Assembly: GCA_964448655.1 (NCBI GenBank)
Contig: CAYUXD010000002.1
Location: 1-38,095, forward strand
Origin: an uncultured Eubacteriales bacterium
GTDB lineage: Bacteria > Acidobacteriota > Aminicenantia > Aminicenantales > Aminicenantaceae
Reading direction: 5' to 3'
Length of the DNA: 38,095 bases
The notes beneath the pieces are model-generated. The model was not told the DNA's origin and searched no databases. It worked only from the letters and a program-made list of their open reading frames with translations. Of this stretch, positions 746-38,095 are shown piece by piece (the stretch's first letter is position 1; every line of letters begins with the position of its first letter). The position numbers and the translations under genes were made by a program.

Positions 746-2443
746 ATGGAAAAAAGAGTACTAATAGCTATTGTCCTTTCTTTCCTGATTTTGATTCTCT
801 ATCAGGCATTTTTCATTAAAAAACAGCCACAGCCAGAAGTTCCACCAGAAAGTCTCACAGAGATAGAGAAAAAGCCTGAGCAAAAGCCTGCAGAAAGAGA
901 ACTCCTTTCTCCTCCAGCGATAACAGAGGAAAGAGAGCCTGCAGAAGAAGAGAGAGACCTTCAGCCGATCTCAGCCCAGGCTAAAAAAGAAATCCTGATC
1001 GATACTTCTTTGTATCAAGCTGTATGGAGTAATAGGGGAGCGGTGTTAGAGAGTTGGAAGCTTAAAAAACATACGGATGAGAATAGAGAAGACTTGGAGC
1101 TTGTTTCTCTACGAGCGGCAGAGCTTGATATATATCCTTTTTCCCTGAGAACAGATGATTCATCCTTCGATAGCACTATCAACACTGCCCTCTTCGAATT
1201 CTCAAATCTCAAGCTAGAACTGGAAGGCGGCCGGACAGGTGAACTCCGCTTTCAGTATGCAGATGATAAAGGGACCCGCGTGGAGAAAATCCTTACTTTC
1301 CAGGATGGAAAATATGATTTTGATGTGACAATCAATGTTTGGAAATACGGACAAAAAATCGAGTTCCATGCTCTTTGGGGTCCAGGCATTGGTAATCCCA
1401 CTGCAACCGAGCTAAAGAGCCGGTTCGGAGGAGCAAGAGGCATGGCTGTTTTTCCACCGCCAGCTCGCCCTAAAAAAGACCGTTTGGAAGAAAGAAAATT
1501 TGCGCAAATAAAGCAATGGGAAGATTTGACCGCGAAGAAACATAATGATTTTTATTTCGTCCAATGGGCCGCCTATGAAGATAATTACTACGCAGCACTT
1601 TTCCTCACTTCTCCTGAAAAAGCAACCGCGTCTTTCCTGCGAGAAGGGCCAGAAGAAAACCCTTACTTTTTTCTCTCCGCGAGCTCTCCCCAAAAGGTTT
1701 ATATAGGACCTAAAGATTTCGATATTTTAAGTAAGTTCGGCTACGAAGCAAAAAGACTGATAAAGTTCGGATTTTTTGGGGTTATTTCTGAAATCCTCCT
1801 CAGAGCCAGCAAATCTATCCATAAACGTATCCCTAACTGGGGAATCTCTATCATCATCCTCACTTTTATTATCAAAATTCTCTTTTTTCCCTTAACCTAC
1901 AGCAGCATGCGCTCCATGTCCAAGATGCAGGAACTCCAGCCCAAGATTAAAGCTCTGAAAGCCAAATACAAAAAGGCCAAACAGGATATCGCCCAGCGCC
2001 GCAAAATGAACGAAGAAATCATGAAACTCTACAAACAACACGGTGTCAATCCGGCTGGAGGCTGCTTACCCCTGCTCATCCAAATCCCCGTCTTCTGGGG
2101 ATTTTTCCGGCTTCTGGTCGTAGCCATTGAATTCAGGCACAGTCCCTTCATTTTTTGGATAAAAGACCTTTCCGTAAAGGATCCATTCTATGTTACTCCA
2201 ATCCTGATGGGCATCACTCAATTCATAAGCCAGAAAATGACCCCCACATCTGCTGACCCCACTCAGGCAAGGATGATGCTCTTCATGCCTGTTATAATGA
2301 CTATCTTTTTTGCACAATTTCAAAGCGGCCTTGTCCTTTACTGGCTGACCAACAATGTCCTCCAAATCGGCCAGCAGTACATCATGAATCGCTTGAGGCA
2401 AAAGAAAAAGAGAGAATCTCATGGCAAAAGAAGAAAAAAATAA
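746..2443 (+). CDS. yidC: membrane protein insertase YidC (long, diderm type)
   Basis: 565 aa. N-terminal TM helix, a large periplasmic domain, and the C-terminal 60-kDa insertase core (GGCLPLLIQIPVFWGFF, LYWLTNNVLQIGQQ) with a basic tail. GAGG Shine-Dalgarno upstream. Confidence 0.9.
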   Translation: MEKRVLIAIVLSFLILILYQAFFIKKQPQPEVPPESLTEIEKKPEQKPAERELLSPPAITEEREPAEEERDLQPISAQAKKEILIDTSLYQAVWSNRGAVLESWKLKKHTDENREDLELVSLRAAELDIYPFSLRTDDSSFDSTINTALFEFSNLKLELEGGRTGELRFQYADDKGTRVEKILTFQDGKYDFDVTINVWKYGQKIEFHALWGPGIGNPTATELKSRFGGARGMAVFPPPARPKKDRLEERKFAQIKQWEDLTAKKHNDFYFVQWAAYEDNYYAALFLTSPEKATASFLREGPEENPYFFLSASSPQKVYIGPKDFDILSKFGYEAKRLIKFGFFGVISEILLRASKSIHKRIPNWGISIIILTFIIKILFFPLTYSSMRSMSKMQELQPKIKALKAKYKKAKQDIAQRRKMNEEIMKLYKQHGVNPAGGCLPLLIQIPVFWGFFRLLVVAIEFRHSPFIFWIKDLSVKDPFYVTPILMGITQFISQKMTPTSADPTQARMMLFMPVIMTIFFAQFQSGLVLYWLTNNVLQIGQQYIMNRLRQKKKRESHGKRRKK

Positions 2444-3053
2444 TCAAGAAAAAGAATTCAAAGGAAAAAATTTAGACGAAGTCATTGGCCACGCCGAGCA
2501 TGTTCTCAAGCTCCCCCGGAGCAAAATAAACTATGAAATTGTCACAGAAAAAACAAAGCTCTTTGGAATCAAGACTAAAGAGATTGTAATCCGCGCCTGG
2601 CCGCGGGAAGAACCAGAAGAAAATCCTGTGGCTAAATTTCTCGATCAGATCCTGTCTCTTCTGCCCCTTGAAATAAACTACCAGATAAAAAGAAAAAACG
2701 ACATGATCTATCTCATTTTTGAAGGAGAGGACAAACACTTTCTCCTGCACAAAGATGGATCACTGCTCCATGCCTTTCAACACATCCTCAATAAAATCTC
2801 TCCCCAAAAAGTTCAAGCCGACTGCGAATTTTATAGAAAAAAGCAAGAAACGCAGTTAAGGGAGTATGCCCAGCATATTGCTCATCATGTCCACGAAACG
2901 GGCAAGGATGAAATCCTGGATATGATGAATCCTTATGAAAGAAGAATCGTCCATATAGCTGTGAATCAAGTTTCAGGAACTTCGACTGAAAGTATCGGCG
3001 ATGGATTTCTGAAACGAATCAAAATTTTCCCCGTAAAGAGCGAAACCAAATAA
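2421..3053 (+). CDS. jag: Jag/KhpB-type RNA-binding protein (KH + R3H domains)
   Basis: 210 aa. C-terminal R3H-like block ERRIVHIAVNQVSGTSTESIGDG. Conserved position after yidC, overlapping the yidC 3' end by 23 nt. Confidence 0.8.
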   Translation: MAKEEKNNQEKEFKGKNLDEVIGHAEHVLKLPRSKINYEIVTEKTKLFGIKTKEIVIRAWPREEPEENPVAKFLDQILSLLPLEINYQIKRKNDMIYLIFEGEDKHFLLHKDGSLLHAFQHILNKISPQKVQADCEFYRKKQETQLREYAQHIAHHVHETGKDEILDMMNPYERRIVHIAVNQVSGTSTESIGDGFLKRIKIFPVKSETK

Positions 3054-3289
3054 AGGGGACAGGCTACTTTTTCAATAAGAACGAGAATAATCTCTACTCG
3101 TGGACAGTACACCAGAAAGAGTAGCCTATCTCCTCTTAGCTCTTAAGAAATATTTCTATTATGTGGGATAAGGTCTTGCCATCGGGGAACGATATTTTCC
3201 CGCACTCTCGTCCTTATAGCATTCCATTGGATAAGGCTTGATCCCAACACTAGAAAAAGCAGCCTGTCCCCTTTTTTTCCCTTTTTTCC
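3052..3289. repeat. palindromic MITE/REP-like element, copy 1 (also a likely intrinsic terminator after jag)
   Basis: Left arm AAAGGGGACAGGCTACTTTTTC (3052-3073) pairs with GAAAAAGCAGCCTGTCCCCTTT (3253-3274), 21/22. An 81-bp centre (3165-3245) lies between them. A degenerate extra arm sits at 3114-3134. The tail is CCCCTTTTTTTCCCTTTTTTCC. No ORF. A second copy lies at 25509-25676. Confidence 0.6.
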
Positions 3290-3293
3290 GCAC

Positions 3294-3322
3294 TTTACGT
3301 TTTACCCTTCACGTTTTATTAT
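3294..3322 (+). promoter_or_regulatory. candidate sigma70-type promoter for mnmE (near-leaderless)
   Basis: TTTACG (3294-3299), 17-nt spacer, TATTAT (3317-3322). The mnmE ATG follows only 9 nt later with no Shine-Dalgarno. Pattern match only. Confidence 0.3.
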
Positions 3323-3331
3323 ATATGAGTC

Positions 3332-4699
3332 ATGCTTGAAGATACGATCATTGCCATCTCCACCCCTCTGGGCTACGGTGGTCTGGGCATCGTCCGTCTC
3401 AGCGGAAAAAAATCACTGCCGATAGCCAAAAAAATGTTCAAGCCGAAGAAAAACAAGGCCCAAATCCCTCCTCGTCACCCCATTTTGGGAAACCTGTATC
3501 ATTTTGAACAAAAGGAATTCTTCGAAGAAGCCTATCTGACTTATCTCCCTTCACCCCATACTTACACCAAGGAAGATGTGGTGGAAATAAGCTGTCATGG
3601 AAGTCCTGTAATCCTCGAGGAGGTTGTCCGCCTCGGCATAAAAGCCGGAGCAAGACACGCCAGACCCGGAGAGTTCACTCTTCGGGCTTTTCTTAGCGGA
3701 AGAATCGACATTCTCCAGGCTGAACCAAAAAACCAAAACAACCAACCCCCCACATAAAAACACCCAAAAATAACCAATACCCAGCTCGAACCAAACCATT
3801 CCCAAAAAATAGCCACTCTCCCCAACAAGATTATCCACCTCCTCTCTCAAATCGAAGCCAGCATTGAATTCCCGGAGGAGGGACTGCGAATCTCTCCAAA
3901 GCAGATATCGAAAACAATGGAAAAGGCCATTCATTCCTTAAGAAATCTTGTAGAAAGCTATGATCTGGGAAAAACGCTTTCCGCAGGCCTGACATTAGCC
4001 ATCACAGGAAGAAAAAACGTGGGCAAATCTACTCTATTTAACTCACTTCTCCAAAAAGAAAGGGCCATTGTCACCCCTTATCCTGGAACGACAAGAGATT
4101 ATTTATGCGATAAATTAAATATAAATAGCTCCATTTTCACCCTGATCGACATGGCTGGTTTGGGCAGCCCCGTTCATATGGCAGAAAAAGAAGGGATAAA
4201 AAGAGCAAAAATACTGGCATCTCAGGCTGATGGAGTGCTCCTTCTCCTTGATTCTTCTCAAGGCAAAAGCTCTGAAGATGTTAAGCTTATCAAAAAATTT
4301 AAAAACAAAAAGACCATTCTCCTTTTTAATAAAATTGATCTCCCTCAAAAAATGAGCAAAAAAAATGTTAAAAGCCGGGCAGAATCCCTGCCTGCGCTTG
4401 AAATTTCAGCTTTAAAAGGAACAAACCTAGGGAAGCTTAAAGAGATGATCTATGAGTTTTTTGTCCCCAATCAGAAACAGGGAGAAGAGGTTATTCTTCA
4501 TTTGCGGCAAAAACTCCTGCTTGAAAATATACTTGACCACTTGATTGACGGCCTCCGCCTCCTTAAAGAAGGCCATCCCGAAGAAATTTATGCTGAAGAA
4601 ATCCGAAAGACAATCCCTTTAATCGGCCAGCTTACTGGAGAAATTCATACGGATGATATCATTGAAGACATGTTCAGCAGATTCTGTGTAGGAAAATAG
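3332..4699 (+). pseudogene. mnmE: tRNA modification GTPase MnmE, interrupted by one in-frame TAA (3755-3757) inside an A/C-only tract
   Basis: ORF fragments 3332-3757 (N-terminal domain, DTIIAISTP.G.GGLGIVRLSG) and 3917-4699 (G domain GRKNVGKSTLFN, C-terminal FCVGK) share one frame. Hand translation of 3758-3916 continues as MnmE (LLSQIEASIEFPEEGL). Total length is 455 codons, the normal MnmE size. Confidence 0.85.
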
Positions 4700-4707
4700 G
4701 AAAAAAG

Positions 4708-6570
4708 ATGAATTTTGTGGATGAATATGACGTTATTGTAGTCGGCGCCGGTCACGCAGGATGTGAAGCCGCTTACGCAGCCTCTACCATGGGTCTTGAA
4801 ACATGCCTCATCACCATCAATCTCGAAACAATCGCTCAGATGTCCTGCAATCCTGCTATAGGAGGACTGGCCAAAGGACATCTGGTCCGAGAAATAGACG
4901 CCCTGGGCGGTATCATGGGTCTCCTGGCTGACGAGACAGGAATACAATTCAGACTCCTGAATCGAAGTCGGGGTGGAGCGGTTCAAGCACCAAGGGCACA
5001 ATCTGATAAAGCCCTCTACAGGCTGACCATGAAAAACTGGTTGGAAAAAGTCCCGAATTTAACGCTCTTCCAGGGAATTGTCACAGAAATTCTTATAAAG
5101 GATAAAAGAGTGCAAGGAGTTATGACTTTGGAAGGAAATCGGCTGTTAGCAAAAGCTCTTATCTTGACTCCGGGAACATTCTTGAACGGCCTCATCCACA
5201 TCGGCCTTCATAGTTATTCCGCAGGAAGAGCTAACGAGCCAACTTCACACGAGCTCAGCGAAAATTTGAAAAAATTAGGACTGAAAACATTTCGTTTGAA
5301 AACGGGCACACCGATGAGACTTCATGAACAAACCATAGACTGGAGCCAGTTTACCCCTCAACCCGGAGATAAAAAGCCAATTCCTTTTTCTTTTCGTACT
5401 AAAAAAGAGCTAAAAAACCAAATCCTCTGCCATATTGGATATACGAATCAAAAAACCCATGAAGTTATCAGAAAGAATCTGGATAAATCCCCTCTGTACA
5501 GCGGAAAAATAATTGGTATAGGGATTCGTTACTGTCCTTCTATAGAGGATAAAGTCGTCAAATTTCCCCATCATCAAAGACATCAATTTTTTCTTGAGCC
5601 TGAAGGCTTAGAGACAGCCGAAATATACGTTAACGGCATCTCCTCCAGTCTGCCTCTTGAAACCCAGAAGGAAATCCTGAAAAGTATCCCTGGCCTGGAT
5701 ACGGCGAAAATATTGAGGCCAGCTTACGGCATTGAATACGATGCAGTTATTCCTACCCAACTTAACCCCTCTCTCGAAACAAAAAATATTAAAAATTTGT
5801 TCTTGGCCGGCCAGATCAACGGAACCTCTGGGTACGAAGAAGCAGCTGCCCAAGGCTTGATGGCCGGCATAAATGCTTCTTTAAAAATAAAAAAGGAGAA
5901 ATATTTCGTTCTTGGGAGGGATGAGGCGTATATAGGGGTGCTCATCGATGATCTCGTCACTAAAGGAGTTGATGAGCCTTATCGTCTCTTCACATCGCGC
6001 GCTGAATACAGGCTCCTCCTTCGGATTGACAATGCGGATAAAAGGTTGACTCAGTATGGATACAATTATGGGCTCATTAAAGAACAAGACTATGAAGCTT
6101 ACCAAAAAAAACAGGAGAGGATAGAAAAAGCTATGCATTTTCTCCAGAAAGAAAGAATAATAACAGAAAATAAAGAAAAACTGAGGCTGAAGGACCTGCT
6201 AAAAAAACCTGAAGTGAAATTCAAAAATGTGGTAGAATATAAAAAATTCAGTGGGCTGTTAACTGATGAAGAAATACGACATGTCGAGTCAGAGGTAAAA
6301 TACGAGGGCTATTTAAAAAAACAAGAGAAAGAAATTGCCAGAATTAAAAAAATTGAGGGAGAGAAAATCCCAGAAAATACAAATTTCAGGAAAATACCTG
6401 GGCTGACTGGGGAAGTGATGGAAAAATTGGAAGAAATTCGGCCTCAAACGATAGGGGAGGCAAAAAAGATCCCTGGAATAACTCCCGCAGCCACACTGAA
6501 CCTGCATATCTATTTAAGCATTCAAAAGAGGAAATCAGAAAAAGGGGAAATGTTCCACGTGAAACATTAG
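4708..6570 (+). CDS. mnmG: tRNA uridine 5-carboxymethylaminomethyl modification enzyme MnmG (GidA)
   Basis: 620 aa. N-terminal FAD fold YDVIVVGAGHAGCEAA, then NPAIGG.AKGHLVREIDALGG. Conserved mnmE-mnmG-parAB synteny. Confidence 0.95.
   Translation: MNFVDEYDVIVVGAGHAGCEAAYAASTMGLETCLITINLETIAQMSCNPAIGGLAKGHLVREIDALGGIMGLLADETGIQFRLLNRSRGGAVQAPRAQSDKALYRLTMKNWLEKVPNLTLFQGIVTEILIKDKRVQGVMTLEGNRLLAKALILTPGTFLNGLIHIGLHSYSAGRANEPTSHELSENLKKLGLKTFRLKTGTPMRLHEQTIDWSQFTPQPGDKKPIPFSFRTKKELKNQILCHIGYTNQKTHEVIRKNLDKSPLYSGKIIGIGIRYCPSIEDKVVKFPHHQRHQFFLEPEGLETAEIYVNGISSSLPLETQKEILKSIPGLDTAKILRPAYGIEYDAVIPTQLNPSLETKNIKNLFLAGQINGTSGYEEAAAQGLMAGINASLKIKKEKYFVLGRDEAYIGVLIDDLVTKGVDEPYRLFTSRAEYRLLLRIDNADKRLTQYGYNYGLIKEQDYEAYQKKQERIEKAMHFLQKERIITENKEKLRLKDLLKKPEVKFKNVVEYKKFSGLLTDEEIRHVESEVKYEGYLKKQEKEIARIKKIEGEKIPENTNFRKIPGLTGEVMEKLEEIRPQTIGEAKKIPGITPAATLNLHIYLSIQKRKSEKGEMFHVKH
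6551..6566. promoter_or_regulatory. parS centromere-like site
   Basis: TGTTCCACGTGAAACA matches the canonical parS palindrome TGTTTCACGTGAAACA at 15/16 positions. It lies in the last codons of mnmG, 10 nt upstream of the parA start. Confidence 0.7.
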
Positions 6571-6576
6571 ATAGCG

Positions 6577-7332
6577 ATGAGCAAGATTATAGCCATAGCC
6601 AACCAAAAGGGCGGAGTTGGGAAAACAACGACCGCGATTAACCTTGCCGCTTCTTTGGCTTTAAAGAAGAGGAAAGTTCTGGTTGTGGACTTGGACCCTC
6701 AAGGAATGGCTACCTCTGGCCTCGGGAAGAAAAAAGAGGACAAAAAGGGGATCTACCAGGCTCTGATGAACGGACAGGACATGACGGATTATATCCAGTC
6801 CACCGAGCTCGATAACCTCTATATCTGTCCTTCCTCCCCTGAACTGCTAGGAGTAGAGGCAGAACTTTTTTCCGAAGAAGCAAAAGAAAGGAGGCTGCAG
6901 GTTGCCCTAAGTAGAATAAAAAATTTCTTTAACTTTATTCTAATCGATTGCCCTCCTTCGCTGAGCTTTTTGACTATTAACGCTTTAACTGCTGCTGACT
7001 CAGTTCTTATTCCCGTACAATGCGAATTTTTCTGTATGCAAGGCATCCCAGAACTCCTTCACATCTATGATGAGGTTCGCACTCATTTGAACCCGTCTCT
7101 TTCCATCGAAGGTATTCTCTTGACTATGTTCGACGAACGAACAAACCTTTCCAAACAGGTTGCAGCAGAGGTTAAACGTTCTTTAAAGGGCATCATATTC
7201 GAGGTCATTATTCCTCGAACAGTAAGACTTGCCGAAGCTCCCAGTTTTGGCAAACCGATTCAGCTCCATGACAGAAAATCAAAAGGAGCCGAGGCCTATC
7301 TCAATTTAGCGCGGGAGATGCTACAGATATGA
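6577..7332 (+). CDS. parA: chromosome partitioning ATPase ParA/Soj
   Basis: 251 aa. Deviant Walker [12 protein letters not shown], then DLDPQG and IDCPPSL motifs. Confidence 0.9.
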
Positions 7333-8168
7333 AAAGGAAAGCTTTAGGAAAAGGATTAAAGGCGTTCATCCCTGAAGAGTATGGAATACTAAAAGAAGAA
7401 AGATACGCTGATTTAGAAATTGAACAGCTCAAGCCGAATCCTCTTCAACCGAGGCTGAAATTCGACAAGGAATCTATTGATGAGCTAGCTCGCTCAATAA
7501 AAGAATCCGGAGTTCTCCAGCCTATTATCGTTGTTTCTGAAGGAAATCATTACCGAATTGTTGTTGGGGAAAGGAGGTGGCGTGCAGCTCAAAAAGTCGG
7601 CCTGCGAAAAATTCCATCTCTCATCCGCTCCATGCCCAAGGTGCAGCAGCTCGAGATATCCCTCGTGGAAAACCTTCAAAGGGAAGATCTCAATCCTTTA
7701 GAAATAGCCTTGGCCTATCAGAAATTAGTTCAAGAGCTGGACTATACTCAACAGGAAATCGCTGAAAAAGTTGGAAAAGACAGGACCTCTGTGGCCAATT
7801 ACCTGCGTCTTCTCAACCTTCCCAAAGAAATCCAGGATGATCTGGCAGAGCGTAAGATTTCTATGGGGCACGCCAGAGCTTTGATTGCTATTGAAGACCC
7901 CAAGCTCCAAATTTCTGTTTCACGCCAAATCATTCAAAAACATCTTTCTGTCCGGGATGTCGAAAAAATGGCTTACAAACTCAAACAGGCTGTACCCAGC
8001 CAAAAAAGACACATGCCTGATCCTGACCTTAAGGCTCTTCAAGAACAATTGGTCAAGCTGTTGGCAACGAAAGTTTCAATCTCGGGAAGCCAGAAAAAAG
8101 GGCATATCAAAATTTATTATTTCTCGACTGACGATTTAAACAGGATTTATGAAAAAATCAAGGAGTGA
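7329..8168 (+). CDS. parB: chromosome partitioning protein ParB/Spo0J
   Basis: 279 aa. ParB box [14 protein letters not shown] region [26 protein letters not shown] overlap with parA. Confidence 0.9.
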
Positions 8169-27908: not shown

Positions 27909-28094
27909 ATGAGATTCAGAACAAAATTTGCGATTTTTTTAATGGCTGTTTTACTCACTTTTGTCGGATTTAACCTCATTGCTTTTTCACCAGCATTGGA
28001 TTTATTAAAACTCAGAAAAGAAGCTGGCAATGAAATCATAGCTAATTTTCTGGTTAAGGAAGAACCAATCACTAAACATTCCGGTAGTTCATAA
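27909..28094 (+). CDS. hypothetical small membrane protein (61 aa)
   Basis: Strong Shine-Dalgarno AAGGAG (27897-27902) 6 nt before the ATG. N-terminal TM helix FAIFLMAVLLTFVGFNLIAF. The only + strand coding candidate in the 19.5-kb - strand block. Confidence 0.4.
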   Translation: MRFRTKFAIFLMAVLLTFVGFNLIAFSPALDLLKLRKEAGNEIIANFLVKEEPITKHSGSS

Positions 28095-28233
28095 GGACGA
28101 GGCTCTTATGATAAAAATAATGAGAAGCGAAATCATCAAAATCTGGAATTGGTTGGTAATTGACTTTGAGAAGCTGATGCTCTCCACTTCCAAAGGTAGA
28201 TTAAGCCTTCAGACTCAACCGATTCCCATCCTT

Positions 28234-28282
28234 TAAGAGGCTGCGGTTTCTCCCAGGCGAGTAAATTGCAGCCTCTTTTTTT
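28234..28282 (+). terminator. candidate intrinsic terminator of the small + strand cassette
   Basis: Stem AAGAGGCTGC (28234-28243) pairs with GCAGCCTCTT (28268-28277) and is followed by a T-run to 28282. The loop is rather large at 24 nt. Confidence 0.45.
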
Positions 28283-28364
28283 ATCCTCTTCCCGCATTTT
28301 TCACCATTTATACTTAATTCTTAATTTCTAATTGAGGGGAATATAACAGAAGAGTGTGCTATTT

Positions 28365-28748
28365 AGGAAGCATCTCCATATCTGTTATAACTCGTTGCTA
28401 AGGCATAGGTTTTGGGAAATAGCCGCAGCGACCATTGAAGAAAGGCTCAGGCTATATGGCTCTAAAACACGTTGCTTTTGCCCCAGCGAGTCAAAAGCAA
28501 CTCGGATCAAGGCTTCGCTCTCCTCTCCTTCGGAGAGCAACCTTGCCCGCTCAGCCTCTCTCACGGTTTTTTCACCATACAGCCTTCGCCAGGCACGGGG
28601 ATCCGACGTAGTCGGGCGGCGAGTATGTCTGAGCAGGGCGAGTTACGCAGCCGCCGAGAAGAGCGAATGGAGAATGGCGTTAAAAATCTGAAGGGAGCTA
28701 GGCTATTTCCCAAAACCTTTCCTAATAACGGAAATGGAGATGCTTACT
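28365..28748. repeat. non-coding GC-rich element bounded by inverted repeats (candidate structured RNA or MITE)
   Basis: AAGCATCTCCAT (28368-28379) pairs with ATGGAGATGCTT (28734-28745). GGTTTTGGGAAATAGCC (28408-28424) pairs with GGCTATTTCCCAAAACC (28701-28717). The core holds local hairpins, for example GTTGCTTTTG/CAAAAGCAAC at 28471-28501. Hand count gives 109/180 G+C over 28501-28680. Confidence 0.45.
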
Positions 28749-28749
28749 G

Positions 28750-29229
28750 TTATTTCTTCTTGACAAGAACTTGAGCCCAGGAAGCAATAGCTACTCCCTG
28801 GCCTTCTGCACCCAGCCCTTCATTCGTCTTAGCTTTTATTCCCAAATCATCCTTTCCAACCCCAAGGATTGGGCACAAAACTTCTTTCATCTGAGGGATA
28901 TAAGGGGCTAATTTAGGCTTCTCAGCAATGATAATAGAATCGATACTTAGAATGTCCATATCCTTCTCGTTAATCATGCCGACAACCTTTATCAGTAACG
29001 CAGTACTTTGAATATCTTTATATCTTGGATCTGTGTCTGGGAAGATCTGTCCGATATCTTTCTCTCCTGCAGCCCCCAAGAGCGCATCTATAAGGGCATG
29101 AATCAAACAATCTCCATCAGAATGACCCTTCAGTCCCATTGGGAAATCAATCTCCACTCCCCCTAAAAAGAGTTTCCTCCCTTCCTCTAACCTGTGGATA
29201 TCATAACCAAGACCTGCTTTAATCCTCAA
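28750..29229 (-). CDS. ispF: 2-C-methyl-D-erythritol 2,4-cyclodiphosphate synthase
   Basis: 159 aa. Motifs GYD.H.L, GHSDGD...HA..DALLGA and IG..FPDTDP. Confidence 0.9.
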   Translation of the reverse strand: MRIKAGLGYDIHRLEEGRKLFLGGVEIDFPMGLKGHSDGDCLIHALIDALLGAAGEKDIGQIFPDTDPRYKDIQSTALLIKVVGMINEKDMDILSIDSIIIAEKPKLAPYIPQMKEVLCPILGVGKDDLGIKAKTNEGLGAEGQGVAIASWAQVLVKKK

Positions 29230-36503: not shown

Positions 36504-36521
36504 TTTACTCTCCGTAAAAAT

Positions 36522-37295
36522 TTATTTTTTGGACTTCTTCCTTTCTCCTTCTTCCTCCTTCTTATCTTTCTGTCCTTCCTTTTCTTTCTTTTCTACTTCG
36601 GCCCCGGCTTTCTCCTCCTCCTCCGAAGGCATCCCCCCTCCTTCTTTTTCCTCCTCCAGCACCTCTTTTTCCTCTTTCTCTAGCATTTCAATCTCTGGCT
36701 TTATACTTTCTTCCTCAATCTCTTCCTTCTTCTCTTCTGGTACTTCTTCTTCCTTCTTCTGTTCTTCTTCTGGCTCCTCTCTCTCTTCCGCCGCTTCTTC
36801 CATCTTTTCTTCCGCAACCTCCTCTTCCTTCTTCTCTTCTCCTATCTCCCCTTCTGGCTTTATAACCTCTACTTTTATCTCTACCTTGTCCTCTTGGAAG
36901 ATTTTAATCGGCACGCTGTAGTTGCCCAATCTTTTTATAGGCTCCTCCAACAAGATCTTTTTTTTATCGATTTCAAATCCCAATTCATGAAGGGCATCCT
37001 TAATATCTGAAGAACTCACTGAACCAAAAATTATATCTTTTTCCCCTGCCTTTCTCTTAAAAGAAAGGGCAACTTGGTTGAGATTCTGGATAAGCCCTTC
37101 GAAAGACTGTCTTTCCTTCTCGAGCTTCTTTTTCAAAGCTTTCCTTTCTATCTCGATCATCTTCATGTTAGACGAAGTAACCTCTAGTGCTAATTGTTTG
37201 GGAATCAGATAATTTCTCCCAAATCCTGGAGCCACATCAACAATATTTCCTTTGCTCCCCAGGTTTTCTACATCTTTTTTCAGGATAACTCTCAT
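36522..37295 (-). CDS. rplI: 50S ribosomal protein L9 with ~105-aa Glu/Lys-rich C-terminal extension
   Basis: N-terminal MRVILKKDVENLGSKGNIVDVAPGFGRNYLIPK is classic L9. The canonical L9 ends near aa 150, and the remainder is an acidic low-complexity tail. Confidence 0.9.
   Translation of the reverse strand: MRVILKKDVENLGSKGNIVDVAPGFGRNYLIPKQLALEVTSSNMKMIEIERKALKKKLEKERQSFEGLIQNLNQVALSFKRKAGEKDIIFGSVSSSDIKDALHELGFEIDKKKILLEEPIKRLGNYSVPIKIFQEDKVEIKVEVIKPEGEIGEEKKEEEVAEEKMEEAAEEREEPEEEQKKEEEVPEEKKEEIEEESIKPEIEMLEKEEKEVLEEEKEGGGMPSEEEEKAGAEVEKKEKEGQKDKKEEEGERKKSKK
36727..36838. repeat. acidic-tail DNA module shared with rpsF (copy in rplI)
   Basis: By hand alignment, 36753-36817 against 37674-37738 gives 61/65 identical nt, with similarity flanking on both sides. 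Confidence 0.7.
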
Positions 37296-37591: not shown

Positions 37592-38095
37592 TTATTTATC
37601 CTCCTTGCTCGTTTCCACGGAGTCTAAATCTTCCTGATCTTCCTCTTTCTTCTCTTCTGGCTCTTCTCCTCCTTTCTTCTGTTCTTCTTCTGGCTCCTCT
37701 TTCTCTTCTGTCGCTTCTTCCATCTTTTCTTCCGGAACTACTTCTTCTTCCTTCTTCTCTTCTTCTATGTCCTCTTCCTTTGCAAGAGCTGCGATTTCCT
37801 TTTCCTCTTTCTTTTCAGATTCTTCTTTTTGAGGGACTACAATCTCTTCTTCCGTTGCAGGCGCTGCAGCTTCTTCTTCCGCTGGAATGCCTTTTCTTTT
37901 TTTGCGCACATTTTCTCTAGTCTCTTTTTTCACAGTCAGAAAACGCAAGATTGCCTCTGTTTGTTTGAAGCGCTTTTCAAGCTCAAAGGGAATATTCGAA
38001 TCCCCTTCATAATGAAAAAAAACATAGAATGCTTCTTCGAATTTTTTGATTGGATAAGCTAACTTACGCAATCCCCAACTGTCTGTATAAATAAT
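37592..38095 (-). CDS. rpsF: 30S ribosomal protein S6 (5' end beyond window) with long acidic C-terminal extension
   Basis: The frame stays open to the window edge: ...[18 protein letters not shown] matches the S6 core (W G .R.LAYPI.K). The track Met at 38071 is not the true start. The C-terminal ~110 aa are E/K-rich. Confidence 0.85.
37647..37762. repeat. acidic-tail DNA module shared with rplI (copy in rpsF)
   Basis: Same alignment as above. Protein level: [31 protein letters not shown] in S6 versus [31 protein letters not shown] in L9. Confidence 0.7.

Follow-up and report, generated by a model that had tools for sequence, protein, structure and literature searches.

An A/C-only tract with an in-frame stop in mnmE of a metagenome-assembled Aminicenantes contig: a probable sequencing artefact

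In Illumina two-colour sequencing of the NovaSeq 6000 generation, T is seen in the green channel, C in the red channel, A in both, and G is dark (PMC13218037). The artefacts described for such instruments, poly-G overcalling and the T>G errors of the NovaSeq 6000 (PMC13218037), follow this colour code, extend over runs of cycles within a read, are specific to strand or read orientation, and contaminate calls with low support. In these respects they are the closest described counterpart of the tract considered here, a stretch of mnmE in a public metagenome-assembled genome (MAG) from Aminicenantes. The known two-colour artefacts, however, are losses of signal (any base to G, T to G) and stay at the level of reads, whereas the changes in the mnmE tract are gains, mostly in the red channel (G>C and T>A), and the resulting stretch of A and C only has survived into an assembly consensus.

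Other described phenomena share some features with this tract. Like the MnmE/TrmE pseudogenes of reduced genomes, mnmE as written has an internal stop and has lost conserved residues of the helical domain; unlike in those pseudogenes, there are no indels and no decay elsewhere in the gene, the neighbouring mnmG is intact, and an intact allele is present in the same population, which argues that this is not a real pseudogene. Targeted hypermutation, either by diversity-generating retroelements (A-to-N) or by the AID/APOBEC deaminases (C>T), also creates dense, local, strand-asymmetric clusters of substitutions. A retroelement target is excluded here, as the substitutions are not confined to adenines and 28 of the 28 native adenines are unchanged, and a deaminase is excluded by the complete absence of transitions in the tract. 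Low-coverage or chimeric joins in MAGs, formed at k-mers conserved between strains, are similar in that the tract directly follows a block common to several Aminicenantes lineages, at which one other assembly ends and another one switches lineage. In contrast to such joins, the mnmE tract is the organism's own sequence with systematic miscalls, and not the sequence of another organism.

The mnmE gene and its restored product

All coordinates refer to the window, that is, the whole 38,095-nt stretch of DNA analysed here. The 141-aa fragment of MnmE (ending with ...PKNQNNQPPT), the 260-aa fragment, MnmG, ParB, and YidC are all present in the public protein collection and originate from a single 38,095-nt NCBI contig; hence, the window is the complete deposited contig, and the broken mnmE is a property of the record. 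The features of the window are listed in Table 1.

Table 1. Features of the window and conversion of G/T sites in and around the mnmE tract.
Feature	Position, nt	Strand	Description
mnmE	3332–4699	+	tRNA U34 carboxymethylaminomethyl-synthesis GTPase; 455 codons; as written, split into ORFs of 141 aa and 260 aa
Stop codon TAA, probably artefactual	3755–3757	+	native TAT (Tyr142), T>A at 3757; TAT in L016
mnmG	4708–6570	+	intact partner directly downstream of mnmE; TIGR00136, 837 bits (cut-off 525)
Conserved block left of the tract	3690–3726	+	identical in most relatives (12-relative alignment); probable branching node in metagenome assembly graphs
Altered tract, probably corrupted	3725–3823	+	24 substitutions: 12 G>C, 10 T>A, 2 C>A; dense core at 3725–3783, fading out by 3823
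rplI (L9)	36522–37295	-	Glu/Lys-rich C-terminal tail
rpsF (S6)	37592–38071	-	Glu/Lys-rich C-terminal tail
G/T sites converted	3700–3724		0/10
G/T sites converted	3725–3754		9/9
G/T sites converted	3755–3783		7/10
G/T sites converted	3784–3812		3/10
G/T sites converted	3813–3829		3/6
G/T sites converted	3830–3859		0/11

The two mnmE ORFs (3332–3757 and 3917–4699) lie in the same frame, 585 nt apart, and the read-through translation of 3332–4699 yields 455 codons with one internal stop, the TAA at 3755–3757, by which the frame of the deposited gene is interrupted. The first fragment contains the TrmE_N domain, and the second one, MnmE_helical and MMR_HSR1. When the substitutions of the tract are reverted, an uninterrupted MnmE of 455 aa is obtained, with PF10396 at residues 5–124, PF12631 at residues 128–452, and PF01926 at residues 222–334; the domain set is that of an MnmE/TrmE GTPase, with TrmE_N, a helical domain split by the G domain, and a G domain of the MMR_HSR1 type. 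The repaired protein passes TIGR00450, the NCBIfam MnmE equivalog (349.4 bits, cut-off 252.6); with NF003661 it scores 349 bits, which is under the cut-off of that model (380). The C-terminus (...FCVGK) retains the CxGK motif, and mnmE is adjacent to mnmG, the latter being intact, as the preliminary description of the locus had stated. Outside the tract, mnmE shows no sign of decay. The organism almost certainly has a normal mnmE–mnmG pair.

The best 120 listed MnmE relatives are all intact, and nearly all of them are 455 aa long. The best orthologues, from Ca. Aminicenantes (455 aa), have 85–88% identity, tract included; all close orthologues have 455 aa and no indel, and 12 related DNA loci with about 89–93% identity are aligned across mnmE without gaps. 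Thus, both the 455-codon read-through and the gap-free orthologues of the same length bear out the earlier statement that the fragments are in frame, that the TAA is the sole interruption, and that no indel is involved. It had also been noted that the protein encoded by the tract is unlike the conserved start of the MnmE helical domain, and the orthologues indeed read differently: AE-AINDIIQAPSYKQAKISFSQLEGSLSQKIASLRNQ-IIHLL in relatives vs. AE-PKNQNNQPPT*KHPKITNTQLEPNHSQKIATLPNK-IIHLL in the window (the asterisk marks the stop), several positions being invariant or nearly so. Tyr142, at the position of the stop, is nearly invariant among MnmE orthologues. A natural linker rich in P, N, Q, and K, which would speak against substitutions in a native gene, was sought in the relatives, and none of them has one; the substitution reading stands.

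Relation of the tract to the native sequence

On the + strand, the 59 nt of 3725–3783 comprise 33 A, 23 C, and 3 T, G being absent, and for 3725–3829 the counts are 51 A, 41 C, 9 T, and 4 G. This recount agrees with the preliminary description, which had reported 59 nt without G and with three T, followed by sparse G and T up to about 3829; its coordinates were essentially right, as the altered stretch is 3725–3823. The longest pure A/C run is 32 nt (3723–3754), the runner-up, of 15 nt, is located within the same tract, and outside it such runs reach 13 nt at most in the 38 kb. When the whole 38 kb is scanned, the level of at least 50 A/C per 60 nt is reached only at the mnmE tract. With the background A+C fraction of 0.523, the chance of 56 A/C out of 59 is, by our own arithmetic, about 1e-12 per position, so the composition of the tract is not a matter of chance. 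A second patch of this kind is found neither by composition (in the whole window) nor by the density of private differences (at 1–9.9 kb), the latter being 21 per 100 nt in the tract vs. about 2 per 100 nt elsewhere in that region. The private differences of the window from its relatives outside the tract are ordinary, mostly transitions. The C/T-rich tracts at 36517–36895 and 37620–37785 were considered as sister artefacts and rejected, as they are the antisense of the natural Glu/Lys-rich C-terminal tails of ribosomal proteins L9 and S6. The exact tract sequence has no match in JGI metagenome contigs or viral contigs, and a search of GTDB species representatives with the 21-mer from the left flank matches relatives, the window itself being absent there.

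The same population has been sampled independently, as follows from two short contigs, L014 (Logan SRR9706179) and L015 (JGI 3300031624), that are 100% identical to the window at 6200–7398. One more contig, L016 (Ga0315545_1038663, from the same JGI metagenome sample 3300031624), was retrieved with a strain-specific 29-mer located to the left of the tract. It coincides with the window at 1107–3724 (0 mismatches in 2618 nt), while past 3724 it continues as intact mnmE, GCCATAAACGACATGATCCAAGCCCCGTCATATAAACAGGCAAAAATATCCTTTAGCCAGCTCGAAGGAAA, until the contig end at window position 3795. The native sequence reads GCCATAAACGACATGATCC..., and the 71 nt of 3725–3795 hold 20 mismatches between the window and L016, a clustering with Fisher p = 1.5e-33. 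The tract, therefore, is absent from independent data on the same organism within the reach of L016 (to 3795), with the intact allele shown for the population and not for every cell; L016 possibly comes from another sample than the MAG.

The 20 differences comprise ten G>C, eight T>A, and two C>A. In terms of native bases, 28 of 28 A and 17 of 19 C are kept, whereas 10 of 12 G become C and 8 of 12 T become A. The mapping of G to C and T to A, by which the preliminary description had explained the tract as a native mnmE with G read as C and T read as A, accounts for 18 of the 20 differences. Each of the eight other two-base mappings accounts for at most 10 of them, and the mapping of G to A and T to C, expected for a transition-type collapse or for the loss of the high bit in a 2-bit code (A0 C1 G2 T3), has been rejected on these grounds. 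The proposed decoding of individual codons holds overall, with one exception: AAC at 3794–3796 does not originate from AAG, as A at 3795 is native and is also present in L016. The absence of transitions among the tract changes agrees with the earlier remark that they are not of the deaminase type.

Codon 3737–3739 is ATG (Met) in L016, compared to ATC (Ile136, nearly invariant) in all relatives; the Met could be due either to true variation of the strain or to a mistake close to the contig end. AAC found in the window at this position fits both, as it can be obtained from ATG by T>A and G>C, and from ATC by T>A only.

For 3796–3829, past the end of L016, the native state was taken from relatives with 89–93% identity, and in this region four changes of the window are shared with none of the ten relatives: T>A at 3798, T/G>A at 3815, G>C at 3822, and G/A>C at 3823. 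The conversion of G/T sites along the tract (Table 1) starts suddenly and then decays monotonically over approximately 100 nt, that is, roughly one read length. Both C>A changes fall within the first 12 positions of the tract. T recovers earlier than G. Of the 12 native T and the 12 native G at 3725–3795, four and two, respectively, are retained.

At 3895–3896, the window has TCT CCA (Ser-Pro) vs. TCA GCA or TCA ACA (Ser-Ala or Ser-Thr) in relatives. The second of these changes resembles G>C, but it is located 70 nt past the tract, beside an A>T change in the opposite direction. Probably, this difference is natural variation at a variable residue.

Two-colour reading of the tract and its alternatives

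When the two-colour code is applied to the + strand, all 24 changes turn out to be gains of signal in a single channel, 22 in the red and two in the green one, with no losses and no changes of any other kind. The span of the tract is 99 nt, with the intensity changing monotonically along it, as expected for an error confined to the extent of a read. Taken together, the intact independent assembly from the same population, the gradient over about one read length, and the match to a single colour channel strongly favour an artefact. This had been one of the two possibilities offered in the preliminary description; the other one, a strand-specific substitution patch inactivating mnmE, finds no support. 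We consider the tract to be a technical artefact fixed in a metagenome-assembled contig, most likely derived from a two-colour read with a gain of red signal, while the real mnmE is intact, and assign to this reading a probability of about 0.85. The tract is almost certainly not a real biological feature, but a sequencing or assembly error in a public MAG.

The spectrum of substitutions, the gradient, the intact sequence from the same population, and the occurrence of the tract in the public record are observations; what we infer is the type of instrument, the orientation of the read, the bridging by a single read, and the physical origin of the added red signal. The source would be one read in the + orientation, or very few such reads, from a two-colour instrument of the NextSeq 500 or NovaSeq 6000 type. 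Starting from the cycle at 3725, a spurious additive signal would have appeared, almost wholly in the red channel; with red added, dark G would be called C, and green T would be called A, while A and C would be unaffected. The signal would have been strongest at the onset, where all G and T are converted and where the two C>A calls imply some green spill-over, and would have decayed over about 100 cycles. The recovery of T before G could be explained by a weak red background that suffices to change the call of dark G, whereas bright green T would stay as it is. The 99-nt span with its flanks would fit one 150-nt read, and debris, a bubble, or a neighbouring signal may be candidate causes of the extra red. 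An A/C-only "red-gain" artefact of this exact kind has not been found in the literature searched, where the colour code and artefacts of the loss type are documented.

A different optical failure or platform seems unlikely, be it a four-colour Illumina instrument on which the green-laser (G/T) images were lost or a read of the - strand losing red (C>G, A>T) towards its 3' end. Indeed, the loss of G/T images also yields calls of A and C only, and in the - direction the errors rise to an abrupt end in the manner of a decaying read tail. Still, the four-colour loss provides no reason for the near-deterministic pairing of G>C with T>A (18 of 20). Read in the - orientation, both C>A changes correspond to G>T, that is, to green gains, so that losses and gains are mixed; C>G is more complete than A>T, on the contrary to what a partial loss of red predicts; and a read ending at 3725 gives no k-mers joining it to 3724. 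One could also think of software. In k-mer tools, the common 2-bit code (ASCII>>1)&3 represents A as 00, C as 01, T as 10, and G as 11, and clearing of the high bit turns T to A and G to C, reproducing both the observed mapping and the abrupt start. Such a loss of a bit, however, should convert every G and T in a block, and the surviving bases (four of 12 T and two of 12 G in 3725–3795) together with the gradual fade are not expected from it, the graded change pointing to an analogue signal; moreover, C>A at two sites would involve another bit, and we regard this explanation as very unlikely.

That the tract is real DNA seems highly improbable. According to this possibility, strand-asymmetric G>C/T>A hypermutation in vivo has recently pseudogenised mnmE, some unknown strand-specific process, e.g., patch resynthesis by a polymerase mispairing at template C and A, having rewritten about 100 nt of the gene in one Aminicenantes lineage. 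The tract is present in the deposited contig, and its sequence is compatible with a real minor allele. But we know of no mutational process by which about 100% of the G and T of one strand are replaced with C and A, respectively, within 30 nt, the effect then fading over 100 nt. Besides, the same population has the intact allele and is otherwise identical to the window over 2.6 kb, no decay is seen in the remainder of mnmE, mnmG is intact, and the spectrum coincides with a colour channel of an instrument. A low-complexity P/N/Q/K linker of natural origin, or an insert of foreign low-complexity DNA due to misassembly, would resemble the tract in composition, whereas every relative has the conserved helical-domain start at this place and none a linker, and the length is conserved to the base. 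Moreover, the identity of 28 of 28 A and 17 of 19 C to the native bases means that each position of the tract goes back to the corresponding native one, by which the linker or insert is refuted and left with next to no probability.

Persistence of the tract in the assembly and other features of the window

The conserved block immediately to the left of the tract (Table 1) is, from 3704 on, also identical in the much more divergent locus L011, and the 21-mer 3704–3724 is common to several Aminicenantes species. Other assemblies fail here as well. L016 ends at 3795, inside the tract. In L017 (JGI 3300010995, Ga0139323_101732; positions 544–1398 vs. window 3279–3727), mnmE shows 99% identity to the window as far as 3724, with a switch at 3724–3727 to a far more divergent gene of the L011 type (protein P0145). 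Either the assembly of L017 is chimeric, or a true recombination has occurred at the conserved block 3690–3726. An ENA fragment (P0143) diverges at codon 148.

The erroneous path may have been retained at a weak point of the assembly, just past the block common to co-occurring Aminicenantes lineages, where the true coverage would be thin. The corrupted read would then be the only continuous bridge, and the true path, being a dead end, may be clipped at the branch point of the graph. Many assemblers drop k-mers seen once, and hence the survival of such a path would require at least duplicate reads or some dedicated rescue, which counts against a bridge formed by a single read.

The two-colour reading would mean that a read-level failure of a colour channel can persist into the consensus of a deposited MAG, the consequence being a spurious pseudogene and, in public protein collections, two spurious fragments of 141 aa and 260 aa. 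A signature that is easily screened for is a stretch of at least 40 nt lacking G and T (on the other strand, A and C) inside an otherwise conserved gene whose length is kept. Such a screen would help to avoid false claims of gene loss or exotic hypermutation. The value of the finding is that of a quality-control flag, and it has no biological significance.

In a related MAG (L005, GCA_012974965.1), the yidC region lacks about 137 nt that are found in the window (2110–2245) and in another relative, L004. At yidC, this MAG has a called product of 458 aa without Pfam hits, and a call for yidD is missing, which possibly reflects one more local problem of assembly.

Scanning of the whole window with Rfam at gathering thresholds yields zero hits, including no hit to a MITE-like element of about 385 nt (28365–28748) that we observe inside the ORF-poor stretch 28073–28750. 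It has imperfect terminal inverted repeats (28365–28424 vs. 28701–28748) with an 18-nt perfect pair. Its copies with 91–97% identity are located just upstream of mnmE, i.e., at a different site, in three relatives (L008, L013, and L017), so the element appears to be mobile within Aminicenantes.

The C-terminal tails of L9 and S6 have a common 135-nt repeat with 83% identity (36709–36843 vs. 37629–37763), and a third, weaker copy of this repeat is found at 36634–36768. Such a repeat hints at a duplication or conversion that involved the acidic tails of rplI and rpsF, two ribosomal protein genes lying next to each other.
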